A stretch of DNA of 59,809 bases from an uncultured Oscillospiraceae bacterium (GTDB lineage: Bacteria > Bacillota > Clostridia > Christensenellales > CAG-314), in the NCBI GenBank assembly GCA_964506035.1, contig CAZDLE010000002.1:1-59809 (forward strand), written 5' to 3'. Numbering within the stretch: the stretch's first letter is position 1; every line of letters starts with the position of its first letter. Both the position numbers and the translations under genes were made by a program. The notes beneath the pieces were generated by a model. The model did not search any database and was not told the DNA's origin. It saw only the letters and a program-made list of their open reading frames with translations. Shown one piece after another: positions 35,563 to 51,030 of the stretch.

Positions 35563-35589
35563 TTTAATACGCAAAAAAACGACAGTCAA
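35563..35589. repeat. Left flanking inverted repeat of the island (putative attL outer arm)
   Basis: tttaatacgcaaaaaaacgacagtcaa is the imperfect reverse complement of 50998-51030. The 15-mer core aaaaacgacagtcaa is exact. Confidence 0.7.
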
Positions 35590-35805
35590 TAAAAAACACC
35601 CCAAAAAGTTGTCCAACCTTAGTTAGGTATTCTTGGGGAAAATTACACAATAATATTTAACCAAATAGCAGGTTCGTTAGAAAGAGTTCGAGAAATCGGA
35701 CTCTTTTTCTCTCTAAAAATTTTCTATAATACTTCTGTTTATTGGTTGTTTCGACAAAAAAATCAATAGGGACAAACAAAAGGACAAAAATAGGGACATT
35801 TTATG

Positions 35806-35834
35806 TTGACATTTTTATTTTTTAATGTTATAAT
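35806..35834 (+). promoter_or_regulatory. Sigma-70/SigA-type promoter of the first island gene
   Basis: TTGACA (35806-35811), 17-nt spacer, TGtTATAAT (35826-35834). GGAGG lies 7 nt before ATG 35865. Confidence 0.7.
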
Positions 35835-35864
35835 CATAGTGTCATTAAAAAGTGGAGGTTTAAG

Positions 35865-37214
35865 ATGATAAATTTTGGACACGAAACAGAAGAATTAGAG
35901 TTTAAGAAAACAACGGGCGAGCTGCACGATGCAATGAAAGATATTGTGGCGATATTAAATAAACACGAAAACGGCGTTTTGTATTTTGGTATTGCTCCTA
36001 ATGGCGATGTTAAAGGATTGCAGGTTTCAGAATCAACTTTAAGAGATGTTTCTCGAACAATTTTCGAAAGCATTAAGCCGCAATTATATCCGCAAGTACA
36101 AAAAGTTACCATAGACGGTTGTGATATTATTGAAGTGAAATTTAGTGGAAAATATAAGCCCTATTCTGCTTATGGCAAATATTATATCCGAGTTGCTGAT
36201 GAAAGTCGTGAACTAACCCCTGCAGAATTGAAAGAAATGATGTTAATTAATGAATATTCTGAACATTGGGAGCAGCACGCAACATCCTTTTCAATAAATG
36301 ACGTAGATGAAAAAGCACTTAAAGACTTCTACTCTCGCGCTACTGCCTGTGGACGACTTCCCGACGATGGATACGATGCCGAAAAACTGCTTAATAAGCT
36401 TGGGGTGTTGAAAGACGGACAACTTAATAACGCAGGTTATGTTTTATTTGGAAATAATGGTCCTGTAACGTTAAAGATGGCACTATTCGCAACGGACGAA
36501 AAATTAACGTTTTTAGATATAAATAGAACGGAAAACAACATTTATAATCTTGTTGATGAAGCGCTTACATATATTAAGAAAAATATTCGTTGGCGCGCGG
36601 AAATTGGAAATGTTACAAGAGAGGAAATTCCCGAAATACCGTTGAAAGCTCTCCGTGAAATTGTAGTAAATAGTTTTGCTCACGCTCAATACGGAACGTC
36701 TACCCAACACGAAATAGACGTGCATCCGGGAAAAGTTGTTATATATAATCCGGGAGAATTTCCACCTGAGTTTTCCCCTGAGGATTTTGCTAACAAGAAT
36801 CTTTCGTCTATAATACGAAATGAATTAATTGCGAAAGTGTTATATTTATGCCACGATATAGAGTCTTTTGCAAGTGGATTTAAGAGAGTTTATACACTTT
36901 GCAAAGAAAACGACGTTAGTTGTTCCTATGAAAAAACGCCTATAGGTTTTTCATTTATATTTTTAAGAAATGACCCTAATGCGATAATTAATGTCCCTAA
37001 ACGAGAATATAATGTCCCTATAATCCTTTCAAAAACCGAAAAGTTAGTTTACGAAATATTAAAAGAACAACCTTCATTAACAAGAGAAGAGCTTGCAATT
37101 GAAATATCTAAGACAACAAAAACAGTACAACGTGCGCTTGACTCATTAAAAACAAAAGGATTAATTATTCGGGTAGGAACAAATCGTAAAGGTTATTGGA
37201 AAACAACAGATTAA
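35865..37214 (+). CDS. AlbA_2 (Schlafen-like) / HATPase_c_4 / C-terminal winged-HTH protein (putative regulator or sensor)
   Basis: N-terminal ETEELEFKKTTGEL...NGVLYFGIAPNGDVKGLQ (AlbA_2 pattern), LREIVVNSFAHAQY...VVIYNPGEFP (RecG-C-like HATPase_c_4), and a C-terminal LVYEILKEQPSLTREELAIEISKTTKTVQRALDSLKTKGLI wHTH. Confidence 0.85.
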   Translation: MINFGHETEELEFKKTTGELHDAMKDIVAILNKHENGVLYFGIAPNGDVKGLQVSESTLRDVSRTIFESIKPQLYPQVQKVTIDGCDIIEVKFSGKYKPYSAYGKYYIRVADESRELTPAELKEMMLINEYSEHWEQHATSFSINDVDEKALKDFYSRATACGRLPDDGYDAEKLLNKLGVLKDGQLNNAGYVLFGNNGPVTLKMALFATDEKLTFLDINRTENNIYNLVDEALTYIKKNIRWRAEIGNVTREEIPEIPLKALREIVVNSFAHAQYGTSTQHEIDVHPGKVVIYNPGEFPPEFSPEDFANKNLSSIIRNELIAKVLYLCHDIESFASGFKRVYTLCKENDVSCSYEKTPIGFSFIFLRNDPNAIINVPKREYNVPIILSKTEKLVYEILKEQPSLTREELAIEISKTTKTVQRALDSLKTKGLIIRVGTNRKGYWKTTD

Positions 37215-37220
37215 TTTTAT

Positions 37221-37258
37221 AAATATGACGGAGGCTGTCATATTTAGTGTGTTATAAT
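37221..37258 (+). promoter_or_regulatory. Palindrome AAATATGAC-N7-GTCATATTT abutting an extended -10 (TGtTATAAT)
   Basis: Hairpin/operator-like inverted repeat at 37221-37245. TGtTATAAT is at 37250-37258. It lies in the 72-nt gap between the wHTH gene and the 899-aa gene. Confidence 0.5.
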
Positions 37259-37286
37259 TGCTTGAATTATACTAACGAGGTGTCGT

Positions 37287-48642: not shown

Positions 48643-48743
48643 CGGGATATTTTCTTTTCCCTTTCCAAAAGAGCTTGACTTAAAGCGTAATATTAAGTAA
48701 AATATGTATTAATACGATACAATATTTTCGGAGGATAAGTTCA

Positions 48744-48977
48744 ATGGAAAGAAAAGAAGATACTCCTTTGCGCAAGACACGCAGGAAGTATGAAGAAAAG
48801 AATAAAGAAAAGAGAAAGCAAGCAAGCGGAACGTTCGGTACTATGATACCGAGAACACTATTTGATGAAATAAACGCCTTTCTCGAAGAAAACGGGATAA
48901 CGAAAGTTCAACTCGTAAAAGAAGGATACGAAGCTTTAAAGAGTAAAAAAGAAAACGGTACTCTAAATAAAGAATAA
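48744..48977 (+). CDS. Small basic protein, possible ribbon-helix-helix type accessory/relaxosome protein (tentative)
   Basis: 77 aa with a Lys/Arg-rich N-terminus, then TLFDEINAFLEENGITKVQLVKEGYEAL. RBS ggagg. Confidence 0.5.
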   Translation: MERKEDTPLRKTRRKYEEKNKEKRKQASGTFGTMIPRTLFDEINAFLEENGITKVQLVKEGYEALKSKKENGTLNKE

Positions 48978-48993
48978 GACCGTTGCTTCCAAA

Positions 48994-49253
48994 GTGTTTT
49001 GCGTAGTAAAAATCATTGATAAGGAGATTATTATTACGGAAAACAATACTATTAACACTAACAAAAAGAAATTTTTAATTGACCGATTGGAATACGTGAG
49101 AATTGGTGACGTCGTGTACGTCGTTACCGCTACGGAAAAGAAGATGCGAGAGAAACTCCGCTTGATATTATGCGTAGGCTCATTGACCGAAAGACTGACA
49201 ACTTAATAAATGAACGAACTTGCTATTTGCGAGCTAACGGAGGTAAAAAATAA
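48994..49253 (+). pseudogene. Small element-encoded ORF split by a 1-nt frameshift, originally coupled to the recombinase
   Basis: The frame of 48994 reads ...VVYVVTATEK. The adjacent frame continues EDARETPLDIMRRLIDRKTDNL... and ends in TAATG, overlapping the recombinase start at 49253. The shift falls in the run ggaaaagaag. Confidence 0.4.
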
Positions 49254-50908
49254 TGTTAGAAATGCAATTAGCAATGAAAAATAATTTTAATTACAACTAT
49301 GGAGGTGAAGAAATAACAGCCCTTTACTGCCGACTTTCTCGTGATGACGAACAACAAGGTGACAGTAACAGTATCGTAAACCAAAAAGAAATGCTCAAAA
49401 AGTACGCCAAAGAATACGGTTTTGGGAATATACGCTTTTACGTGGATGACGGATATTCGGGAACAACCTTTAATCGCCCCGATTTTCAACGGCTTATAAG
49501 AGACGTAAACGACGGCAACATTAGAACGATTATCGTAAAAGATATGTCAAGATTTGGACGTGATTACATAATGGTTGGATATTATACCGAAATGTATTTT
49601 ATAGACCGTAATATCCGCTTTATCGCTATCAACGACAACGTAGACAACACCGTTCAAAGGGATAACGATATAACGCCGATTAAAAACTACTTTAACGAAT
49701 GGTATGCTCGTGATACGTCTAAGAAAATTCGGGCCGTATTCAAAACCAAAGGCAATTCGGGCAAACACTTATCTTCTAATCCACCGTTTGGATATATCAA
49801 AGACCCAAACGACAAGGATAAATGGATAATTGACGAAGAAGCAGCTTTAATCGTTAAAGAGATTTTCGACCTTTATATCGGTGGAATGAGTATTCCAAAA
49901 ATCGCAAGGTTACTTACGGATAGAAAAGTACCAACACCGCAGTTATATAACGTGCAACGTGGACGGAAAATTCATAAGCCGAGTGAGTATATGGAAATTT
50001 GGAGCAAGCAAACGATAAAAAATATGTTAAATCGGCACGCATACGCAGGGCGAACTGTTAATTTTACGACAACTAAGAAATCTTTTAAGAACAAAAAGCA
50101 AGTACGCTTACCAAAAGAAAATTGGGTGGTGTTTGAAAATACGCAAGAAGCGATTATTGAGCCTAAAATCTTCGATATGGTACAAAAAATGCGAGAAACA
50201 AAACGTGCTTATACAAGGTTTAACGAAGTAAGTATGTTTACGGGTATGCTCTACTGTATGGACTGTAAGAACAAACTAACCATACAACGGTTTGCAGGAA
50301 AGAGAGAAATGGATAATTACACTTGTGCTACTTATCGCAAGAAGAAAAAAGGAATATGCACTTCTCACCGCATATTGGTAAGTCGGTTAGAGCAAATCGT
50401 TTTAGACGATATTCGCAAGGTTTCGGAATACGTGTTTTTGCACGAAAAAGAATTTATAACGCACTTTCTCAATCGTTCCGAAAAGGAAATGAAGAAAATA
50501 CAAGCGGAAGCAAATTCTGAAATCGTAAACGCAAACAAACGGTGCGATGAAATCAATAAGATTATTCGCAAGCTATACGAAGATAACGTAAGCGGAAAAA
50601 TAACCGACGAGCGATTTGACTACCTTTCTAAGTCTTACGAAGAAGAGCAAAACGAGTTAAACCGTAAAGTACAAGAACTAAAAGAAATTCTCGCCGTCGT
50701 GGATAACGACAACGAGAAATTAGCAAAGTTTATTCGTATTGTAAAGCAATATACGGAGATTGAAGAACTTACGCCCGATATTCTTCACAGTTTCGTGGAT
50801 AGAATTTACATAGGCGAAAAGGAAGTTTACGAAGGGCAAAAGTTCCAAGATATAAAAATCGTATATAATCTTGTAGGTGCAATAGACCTACCGCAATACG
50901 CTATATAA
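49253..50908 (+). CDS. Large serine recombinase (resolvase/recombinase/zinc-ribbon/DUF4368 architecture, TnpX/TndX-like)
   Basis: [22 protein letters not shown] (catalytic Ser region), [10 protein letters not shown], the zinc ribbon CMDCKNKL...[15 protein letters not shown], a coiled coil, and a DUF4368-like tail. GGAGG RBS. Confidence 0.92.
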
Positions 50909-50997
50909 AGCAAAAAGGGAATCTGAGTGGGTTGGTTTTATACCAACTTACTCAAAATTTCCCAAGAGCACCCCACTTTTGGGGTGCACGTCACAAT

Positions 50998-51030
50998 TTG
51001 ACTGTCGTTTTTGTTTTGTTTTGTATTAAA
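50998..51030. repeat. Right flanking inverted repeat of the island (putative attR outer arm)
   Basis: ttgactgtcgtttttgttttgttttgtattaaa is the reverse complement partner of 35563-35589. Confidence 0.7.

Follow-up and report, generated by a model that had tools for sequence, protein, structure and literature searches.

A Tn4451-type integrative mobilizable element, probably inserted into an IS3-end remnant within the pfp/dut terminator of an uncultured Oscillospiraceae bacterium

Introduction

Integrative mobilizable elements (IMEs) of the Tn4451 type pair a serine recombinase with a MobV relaxase, recombine through a 2-bp core, show low target specificity and do not require a recombination directionality factor (PMC5704250). 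Recombinases that carry a DUF4368 domain form a multi-targeting clade (Durrant et al. 2022), which includes TndX and in which one analyzed example uses a TT core (PMC10083194). Here, we describe an island in 59,809 nucleotides of DNA from an uncultured Oscillospiraceae bacterium (GTDB lineage Bacteria; Bacillota; Clostridia; Christensenellales; CAG-314; GenBank assembly GCA_964506035.1, contig CAZDLE010000002.1, positions 1 to 59,809 of the forward strand; “the window”). An earlier reading of the letters (the original prediction) placed an integrative element of about 15.4 kb, with a defense cassette as cargo, in a terminator-like site between the convergent pfp and dut genes. We consider it probable (about 0.8) that positions 35619-50977 are a Tn4451-type IME, inserted via a TT core into the remnant of an IS3-family insertion sequence (IS) end that itself lies in the loop of this terminator.

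How does this locus compare to the described systems? The classical elements of the type, Tn4451 and Tn4453 of Clostridium perfringens and C. difficile (TnpX recombinase, TnpZ MobV relaxase), share with it a single large serine recombinase, a single MobV relaxase, the lack of conjugation pore genes, a 2-bp core common to both ends, low integration specificity, variable cargo, and a Clostridia host (PMC5704250). Unlike them, the window element has its recombinase at the right end, reading outward, and carries defense genes rather than catP. The core differs, too: it is GA in Tn4451 and TT in the window. At the nucleotide level, the similarity to tndX is only weak (73% over ~116 nt). The window element would work like the Tn4451/Tn4453-type IMEs, a comparison based on architecture. 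It also resembles the multi-targeting DUF4368 recombinases of the TndX-like clade (Cp36, Pc01, Enc9), which have the same DUF4368 architecture, close relatives in many unrelated target genes and, in one case, a TT core (Durrant et al. 2022; PMC10083194). Unlike these, the window protein is known from sequence alone, and its target contains GC pairs and matches IS3 terminal repeats (..GTCCAAC-TT-TGGGGTGCA..) rather than a short AT-rich motif. The element is an additional Tn4451-like IME, of a kind already known, and the island is ordinary in kind.

An island in the pfp/dut terminator

The island separates two convergent transcription units, pfp (34078-35301, plus strand) and a 184-aa open reading frame (ORF) plus dut (together 51764-52797, minus strand), and differs from its flanks in GC content (34.8% vs. 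43-44%). At its outer edges lie the left arm of a host bidirectional terminator (35575..35589) and the right arm with its T-run (50998..51012); the two are perfect 15-nt complements, as had been claimed for the chromosomal arms. The repeated sequence, AAAAACGACAGTCAA (plus strand on the left, minus strand on the right), is present in just two copies in 59.8 kb, with 0 expected from 100 shuffles, and GTATTAAA and its complement lie still further out. That a bidirectional terminator should separate these genes was part of the original prediction, and the homologous hairpin is indeed intact in the relatives. Two distant ones, L003 and L002 (the L numbers denote related loci), have it between pfp and the dut side (AAAAAGACAGACAA(A/T)TTTG(C/T)CTGTCTTTTTT), and a closer one, L111, has a simple terminator, AAAAAACGACAGTAACTCGACTGTCGTTTT, at the same position; L003 and L002, with the best pfp identity in a scan of genome representatives (78-79%), are a ‘Ca. 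Fimimonas’ metagenome-assembled genome (MAG) and a Clostridia MAG. A sister species (L113/L115), 87-90% identical in nucleotide sequence in the flanking genes, has the order pfp, terminator (...AAAAAACGGCAGTCAATTTGACTGTCGTTTT...), 172-aa ORF and dut, with no island.

The sister-species empty site reads ...CAAAAAACGGCAGTCAATTTGACTGTCGTTTTGCTTTGTTTTGTATCAAAAATG... (terminator CGGCAGTCAATTTGACTGTCG) and is, base for base, the join that had been predicted, except for one A/G difference; the tetranucleotide CAAT, present in two direct copies in the window (35587..35590 and 50994..50997), occurs there once. Because the sister species has a bare terminator, everything from 35591 to 50997 is extra DNA relative to the ancestral state; together with the difference in GC content, this marks the island as a genuine insertion. 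A check for the empty site in metagenomes, also proposed with the original prediction, did not add to this: the pattern AAACGACAGTCA N0-6 TGACTGTCGTTT had 3 hits, all in unrelated organisms with look-alike terminators. Exact-protein look-ups matched pfp and uvrC only to the contig of the window itself and returned no record for the recombinase or the 184-aa ORF.

Element ends and the TT core

If the extra DNA runs from 35591 to 50997, where does the element itself begin and end? Relatives of the recombinase at 14 other sites have ends that read B-TT-AGTTA..TATTC.TGGGG on the left and ..CCCAAGAG(N9-10)-TT-B' on the right, with B and B' being the target arms. One of these recombinases, P0085, which is 67% identical to that of the window, occurs in identical form as part of a 5.9 kb element (PAP2, helix-turn-helix (HTH), Mob_Pre, 76-aa ORF, recombinase) at ten different sites; every left junction reads B-TT-AGTTAAATATTCGTGGGGAATTT (10/10; shorter forms AGTTAAAT and AGTTAAATATTCGTGGGGAA), every right junction reads ..CCCCAAGAGTATTTAACA-TT-B' (10/10), and the ends make a good palindrome around TT. 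In L110, this element splits a P-type ATPase gene, and the 936-codon ORF is restored only when exactly one TT is kept; rejoining with 0, 1, 3 or 4 T yields longest ORFs of 519, 422, 520 or 516 codons. Such a result is what a serine recombinase with a 2-bp core leaves behind.

The window carries both ends. On the left, 35619-35735 aligns with the left end of the P0085 family (TTAGTTAGGTATTCTTGGGGAA, then ...AAATAGCAGGTTCGTTAGAAAGAGTTCGAGAAATCGGACTCTT). On the right, the evidence comes from a cluster at 97% identity (L088, L089-L098, L099, L100), which has the same backbone in four other chromosomal contexts with different cargo: similarity to the window begins at 47394 (46875 in L100) and is lost at 50979-50998, just past the conserved TT, the backbone at 47394-50979 is 89-94% identical, and the right junctions all read ..CCCCAAGAGCACCCC(A/G)CA-TT- before unrelated sequence begins. 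The TT at the right-junction position is conserved in 15/15. Because the window ends match those of the P0085 family and the 97% cluster, the element boundaries are set at TT/TT: (i) the attL core is TT at 35619..35620, followed by the P' arm, the left element end, at 35621..35640 (AGTTAGGTATTCTTGGGGAA, plus strand), which is homologous to the P0085 left end and an imperfect inverted repeat of 50958-50977; and (ii) the P arm, the right element end, is at 50958..50977 (TTTCCCAAGAGCACCCCAC[T], plus strand), where similarity to every relative stops, followed by the attR core, TT at 50978..50979 (with 50977-78 equally possible in a T-run). The same 2-bp core is thus present at attL and attR, as in the 10 P0085 junction pairs. 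On these boundaries, the element spans 35619-50977, or 15,359 bp counting one TT. A left-end hairpin with a T-run (35683..35709, plus strand), conserved between the window and the P0085 family, is a putative terminator that would insulate the cargo. Two working models, a left core at TT 35609-10 and a 7-nt CACCCCA direct repeat, were dropped once the P0085-family ends were known.

The locus holds three nested inverted repeats. The outermost is the host terminator stem. The middle one, caccccaaaaag at 35597-35608 vs. cttttggggtg at 50976-50986, is complementary except for one additional A, with its right copy inside the palindrome gcacccca-cttt-tggggtgc (50968-50987); it is the IS3-end palindrome that supplies B and B', as described below. 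The innermost, TTAGTTAGGTATTCTTGGGGAA at 35619-35640 vs. the reverse complement of 50958-50979, corresponds to the P' and P arms and is the true element end; it had been overlooked. The outer and middle repeats and the right hairpin had been described correctly (apart from the extra A) and are real, not chance, matches; their roles had not: the terminator arms, cast as B and B', fall wholly outside the att sites, the “inner” repeats, cast as P' and P, are the target arms, and the boundaries had been drawn outside the true ends, by 29 nt on the left and by 18 nt on the right. These corrections matter in practice: excision tests, or any use of the recombinase as a tool, need the attP and attB proposed here, and the terminator sequence is not attB.

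In the proposed mechanism, the recombinase would join the palindromic attP of an excised circle (..TTTCCCAAGAGCACCCCAC-TT-AGTTAGGTATTCTTGGGGAA..) to its target via a 2-bp TT staggered cut, leaving the inserted element flanked by TT at 35619-20 and 50978-79. The target would be a 44-nt palindromic remnant of an IS3 left end (35591-35618 plus 50980-50993), flanked by CAAT and located in the pfp/dut terminator loop. The proposed attP is ..CCCAAGAGCACCCCAC-TT-AGTTAGGTATTCTTGGGG.. (junction ...AAATTTCCCAAGAGCACCCCAC(T)TTAGTTAGGTATTCTTGGGGAAAATT...; core region ..CACCCCAC-TT-AGTTAGG..), and the proposed attB is ..GTTGTCCAACC-TT-TGGGGTGCACG.. or, with the IS remnant, ...CACCCCAAAAAGTTGTCCAACCTTTGGGGTGCACGTCACAATTTGACTG.... 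Transfer from cell to cell would rely on a co-resident conjugative element.

The likely target: an IS3-end remnant

Removing the element leaves 44 nt in the terminator loop, AAAAAACACCCCAAAAAGTTGTCCAACC-TT-TGGGGTGCACGTCA, with CAAT on each side (35587-90, 50994-97); in the fold of the rejoined site, one hairpin is nested inside that of the terminator (-22.6 kcal/mol, z = -4.3). The identity of these 44 nt is revealed by L109, in which a relative is inserted at position 14-16 of TGAAATGCACCCCAA/AAGTTAGACA.., followed by a ribosome-binding site (RBS), ATG and orfA. On the opposite strand, the L109 flank reads TGAAATGCACCCCAA/AAGTTAGACAAAACTTTTGGAGGTGCATTTTT-ATG, then orfA (MAKKGQKQKKYSPEFK...), then an rve/rve_2 orfB whose NCBIfam IS3 score of 226.8 bits clears the cut-off of 160; the IS is 1.29 kb long, and its other end reads ...CTGTCCAACTTTTGGGGTTCA.

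The reverse complement of 50980-50993 plus 35591-35618, TGACGTGCACCCCAAAGGTTGGACAAC.., aligns across all 44 nt to the L109 IS3 ends and to the same target in L106, L101, L107 and L099, with the shared terminal sequence TGA..TG(C/A)ACCCCAAA.GTT.GACA. The homology starts with TG, as in the bona fide IS3 end, takes in the RBS-pairing arm and reaches as far as the site of the orfA start codon; there it passes over into the host ATTG. Of the two sides of the insertion, 50980..50993 (minus strand), the B' arm of attR, is the tip of an IS3-family terminal inverted repeat (reverse complement TGACGTGCACCCCA), and 35591..35618 (minus strand), the B arm of attL, which contains caccccaaaaag and aligns with IS3 left ends in L109, L106 and L101, is the inner part of the left-end remnant, the arm that extends over the RBS region in full IS copies and is complementary to the terminal repeat. 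The “inner” repeat is thus the self-complementary region of an IS3 left end and serves here as both B and B'. The claim that the island sits in the terminator holds insofar as the pfp/dut terminator is interrupted; the direct target, however, is the IS3-end remnant lodged in the loop, not the loop itself.

Like the ends of a bona fide IS3-family copy (TGA..TGCACCCCAAA.GTTGGACA), the 44 nt include the RBS-pairing arm and are flanked by a 4-bp direct repeat; unlike an IS, they have no transposase and a single competent tip. No IS3 orfA/orfB transposase and no second competent end were found in the window, and the other extremity starts with TA and corresponds to internal IS sequence. The 44 nt thus appear to be a remnant of an IS3-family left end, not an IS. 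A 4-bp duplication would be a signature of a transposase, not of a serine integrase. With a copy on either side of the 44 nt and a single one in the sister species, CAAT may be such a duplication, but a microhomology deletion (ATG/ATTG) could leave the same pattern. The remnant may have arisen as a miniature derivative that made a 4-bp target duplication, or as a full IS that was later deleted between ATG and ATTG.

The window is not the only case. L099, L101, L106 and L109 share its B' (TGGGGTGCA..), and L107, in which the insertion lies in the equivalent right end of an IS3 copy, has the near-identical TGGGGTTCA; both target arms recur in L101, L106 and L109, with L099 sharing the identical B' arm and L107 being a variant. 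Altogether, 6/15 insertions in the element family are at the same position of IS3 ends, ...CACCCCAA/AGTTGGACA. The family combines relaxed specificity with repeated hits at one IS3-end position. In the literature searched, we found no description of IS3-end targeting by serine-recombinase IMEs. A broader idea, to which we give slightly less than even odds, is that this DUF4368 IME clade preferentially homes into IS3-family terminal inverted repeats in a fixed position and orientation, using IS ends and their remnants as portable “safe-harbor” landing pads, and that the window copy also delivers a Druantia-like helicase with a beta-sandwich-rich uncharacterized partner, together perhaps a new Druantia subtype. 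That IS3 ends are hit repeatedly is a modest but testable point on the way in which multi-targeting recombinases reach sites where insertion does no harm. The preferred target, TTGTCCAA(A)CTTT(T)GGGGTTCA, also exists in unoccupied form, at IS3 right ends in L101 (11763-11783) and L109 (4524-4544); the copy in L101 is only 40 nt from an occupied site.

Points against and alternative explanations

Several observations weigh against insertion of the IME at 35619-50977 into an IS3-end remnant. As the empty site is that of a sister species rather than of the species itself, it does not date the IS and IME events relative to each other, and metagenome and viral-contig scans recovered no excised circle, attP joint or site with the IS remnant only; attP joints of both families were likewise absent from the IMG/VR viral-contig scans. 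The closest (97%) relatives provide no left end: the contigs of L089-L092 are cut within cargo, and L100, with no recognizable left end and a split relaxase, is probably decayed; the left boundary is thus drawn from homology to the family at 67% identity. A T-run leaves a 1-nt ambiguity in the right core, the left tip of the 44-nt palindrome is TA.., not TG.., and so not a competent IS end, the preference for IS3 ends is based on 6/15 sites, and the C-terminal tail of the relaxase differs from those of relatives.

Could the IS have moved the IME? An IME that had first entered an IS3 end elsewhere could have reached the terminator loop as part of the unit 35591-50993, if an IS3-family transposase had acted in trans on the IS-like end at either side; this would have made the CAAT duplication. 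A direct repeat of 4 bp is of the size produced by IS3-family elements, and IS-like inverted repeats mark both extremities. This composite move is nonetheless unlikely because the left extremity is not an IS tip: it is TA, not TG, and aligns to internal IS sequence (the RBS-ATG spacer). Furthermore, the window has no transposase gene, and the recurrent targeting of IS3 ends by the family explains the arrangement without an extra step.

Still less likely is the crossover of the original prediction, a B-O-P'/P-O-B' layout in which recombination within the CAAT of the terminator loop would create an element at 35590-50997 with caccccaaaaag and cttttggggtg as P' and P, and excision would restore CGACAGTCAATTTGACTGTCG. 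This model accounts for the sister-species empty site, with CAAT once, and its putative attP would be palindromic. Yet 14 insertions of related elements end at TT, inside both claimed limits; in related elements, conservation ends at the TT cores and does not extend to the equivalents of 35590 and 50997; what lies between TT and CAAT is shared with those relatives only where the target is an IS3 end, and in L109 and L106 the TT-CAAT segment continues into the IS3 orfA. A 4-bp duplication is not a product of a serine recombinase, and the one-TT frame test points to a 2-bp core. The crossover thus lies at TT 35619-20 and TT 50978-79, and the att model of the prediction is largely refuted.

Finally, that the element is limited to the backbone (~46.9-51.0 kb), with the defense genes as a separate neighboring island, is hardly credible: the backbone is slightly richer in GC than the cargo (37.7% vs. 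33.9%) and is all that the relatives share, but 35619-35735, with its TT core and P' arm, has its homologue in the true left end of the minimal relatives, so that the cargo lies inside the element; there is no TT/P'-like end near 46.9 kb, relatives hold other cargo in the same slot, and a promoter/operator is common to the cargo of the window and L089.

Recombinase and mobilization backbone

The IME favored here has a backbone of a recombinase, a relaxase, and a candidate origin of transfer (oriT). The recombinase (551 aa; 49253..50908, plus strand; Pfam Resolvase, Recombinase, Zn_ribbon_recom and DUF4368) is intact and adjacent to the right end, as the original prediction held, ending 70 nt from the right junction. 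It has an N-terminal resolvase catalytic domain with the serine nucleophile (PF00239, 3e-23; 12-residue motif at residues 23-34) and the catalytic motif YCRLSRDDE, followed by the Recombinase domain (PF07508, 5e-22), a zinc ribbon (PF13408, 1.6e-11) and the C-terminal DUF4368 (PF14287, 8e-21). The protein is a member of a very large family, and its close relatives are found in many unrelated loci: the 97% cluster occupies 5 sites, including the window, and the identical P0085 protein occupies 10. By domain architecture and distribution, it belongs to the multi-targeting, TnpX/TndX-like clade, and it may still be active in integration and excision.

The MobV (Mob_Pre) relaxase (47639..48550, plus strand; Pfam 2.6e-48; NCBIfam MobV 2e-47) is 90% identical to the L089 relaxase over 287 aa. 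Its catalytic domain is intact; its tail (48500-48550 vs. 9240-9384 in L089) is 31 aa shorter and unrelated, which may be due to a frameshift. Upstream, a non-coding region (46875..47638, plus strand) opens the backbone with a hairpin (46884-46919) and contains an inverted repeat (47538-47569) that is a putative oriT; it is 85-92% identical to L100 and, from 47394 on, 89% identical to L089 and L099. The first 520 nt (46875-47394) are non-coding and highly structured, 85% conserved with L100 and absent from L089 and L099; Rfam searches of the whole window and of 46.8-47.7 kb returned no meaningful match. Two small ORFs of 77 and 70 aa (48744..49206, plus strand), without family matches in Pfam or PHROGs, keep their position between the relaxase and the recombinase in all relatives; in the 97% cluster, the order is Mob_Pre, 77-aa ORF, 86-aa ORF, recombinase. 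The element thus has its own integrase and its own relaxase with a putative oriT but neither a coupling protein nor a type IV secretion system; the other six island ORFs match no conjugation family in Pfam or NCBIfam. A plasmid collection searched with the backbone held no close relative, only distant recombinase, tndX and mobV matches.

Variable cargo and a Druantia-like helicase

The supported part of the original prediction includes its central claim, an integrative element of ~15.4 kb that carries the cassette as cargo. The homology of 35619-35735 to the left end of minimal relatives excludes an element limited to 46.9-51.0 kb, which had been named as an example of what would refute it. 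Cargo fills a variable slot that extends from the conserved left end (~35740) to 46875 and has different contents in relatives: AAA_14/DUF4143, DUF6361, a 602-aa protein and a 1084-aa helicase in L089; small ORFs in L099; PAP2 and HTH genes in the P0085 family; and a dihydrofolate reductase (DHFR) gene in L103. In the latter (5265-11727), the relative has the same recombinase, and the DHFR is of the trimethoprim-resistance type. Another copy, in L104 (4384-5790 and 12574-16294), has a second serine recombinase on one side and an HpaII-type restriction-modification cluster on the other, an arrangement that suggests accretion of elements.

In the window, the slot holds four genes, all on the plus strand, which, going by their family names, form a putative anti-phage defense cassette. 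They are preceded by a consensus sigma-70-type promoter (35806..35834, plus strand; 12/12 hexamer matches, a 17-nt spacer and an extended -10). The first gene (35865..37214) encodes a protein with AlbA_2 (Schlafen-type), HATPase_c_4 and winged-HTH domains (Pfam), a putative regulator. It is followed by a palindrome, ATATGACGGAGGCTGTCATAT, and a -10-like element (37223..37260, plus strand), which are shared with the otherwise different cargo of L089: in the window (37223-37260) and in L089 (960-1000), the palindrome ATATGACGG(AG/AA)(G/A)CTGTCATAT and then TTTAGTGTG.TA.AAT precede the second cargo gene, and the genes that flank it are otherwise unrelated between the two. This looks like a shared operator/promoter at the boundary of cargo modules.

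The 899-aa product of the second gene (37287..39986), whose family is unknown, starts with a helical domain at its N terminus and continues as a series of beta-sandwich domains. It has no match in Pfam, PADLOC, NCBIfam, PHROGs or the PDB and belongs to a small family (49 clusters). In an AlphaFold2 model, the residues are confident and the domain arrangement is uncertain (predicted local distance difference test, pLDDT, 88.5; predicted template-modeling score, pTM, 0.53), and a fold search returned only generic multi-domain matches of the immunoglobulin/fibronectin type III (Ig/FN3) type, with template-modeling (TM) scores of ~0.1. The third gene (39989..45148) encodes a DruE-like DEAD/DEAH helicase with an MZB (DUF1998) domain (PADLOC DruE1 8e-183, DruE3 7.5e-176; Pfam; PDB 9tu7_Y 4e-86). 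The locus resembles Druantia in this helicase of ~1,700 aa, which matches the DruE component of the system; unlike Druantia, it has no recognizable partner (DruA-D, DruM/F/G or DruH), no other island protein matching any PADLOC Druantia model, and the adjacent 899-aa protein, with no detectable family, may be an undescribed Druantia partner. The fourth gene (45162..46871) encodes a NERD nuclease/UvrD-like helicase (Pfam; PADLOC RTasNERD-Hel 3e-53); its best PADLOC match is the model for a helicase associated with defense reverse transcriptases, and no reverse transcriptase gene is adjacent. Putative defense cassettes in uncultured gut Clostridia thus travel on small MobV/serine-recombinase IMEs with an exchangeable cargo slot.

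Repeats next to the terminator

The intergenic sequences on both sides of the terminator are repetitive. On the pfp side, GATATTTAGATTGATGTATCAAAAA recurs in 35303-35579 in three loose copies, alongside 2.5 copies of a 27-nt repeat; the region is unlike its equivalent in the sister species. Just to the right of the terminator, 51079-51675 is a tandem array with a unit of ~126 nt (4.7 copies, 86% matches) and a 257-nt super-unit. Short-read contigs break at this array, and dut contigs end there before reaching the junction; the sister species has only about one unit (L113). Each unit of the array contains a minus-strand ORF of 23 codons, MALREQTKSLKIIEQFIRNNK(N/S)G.

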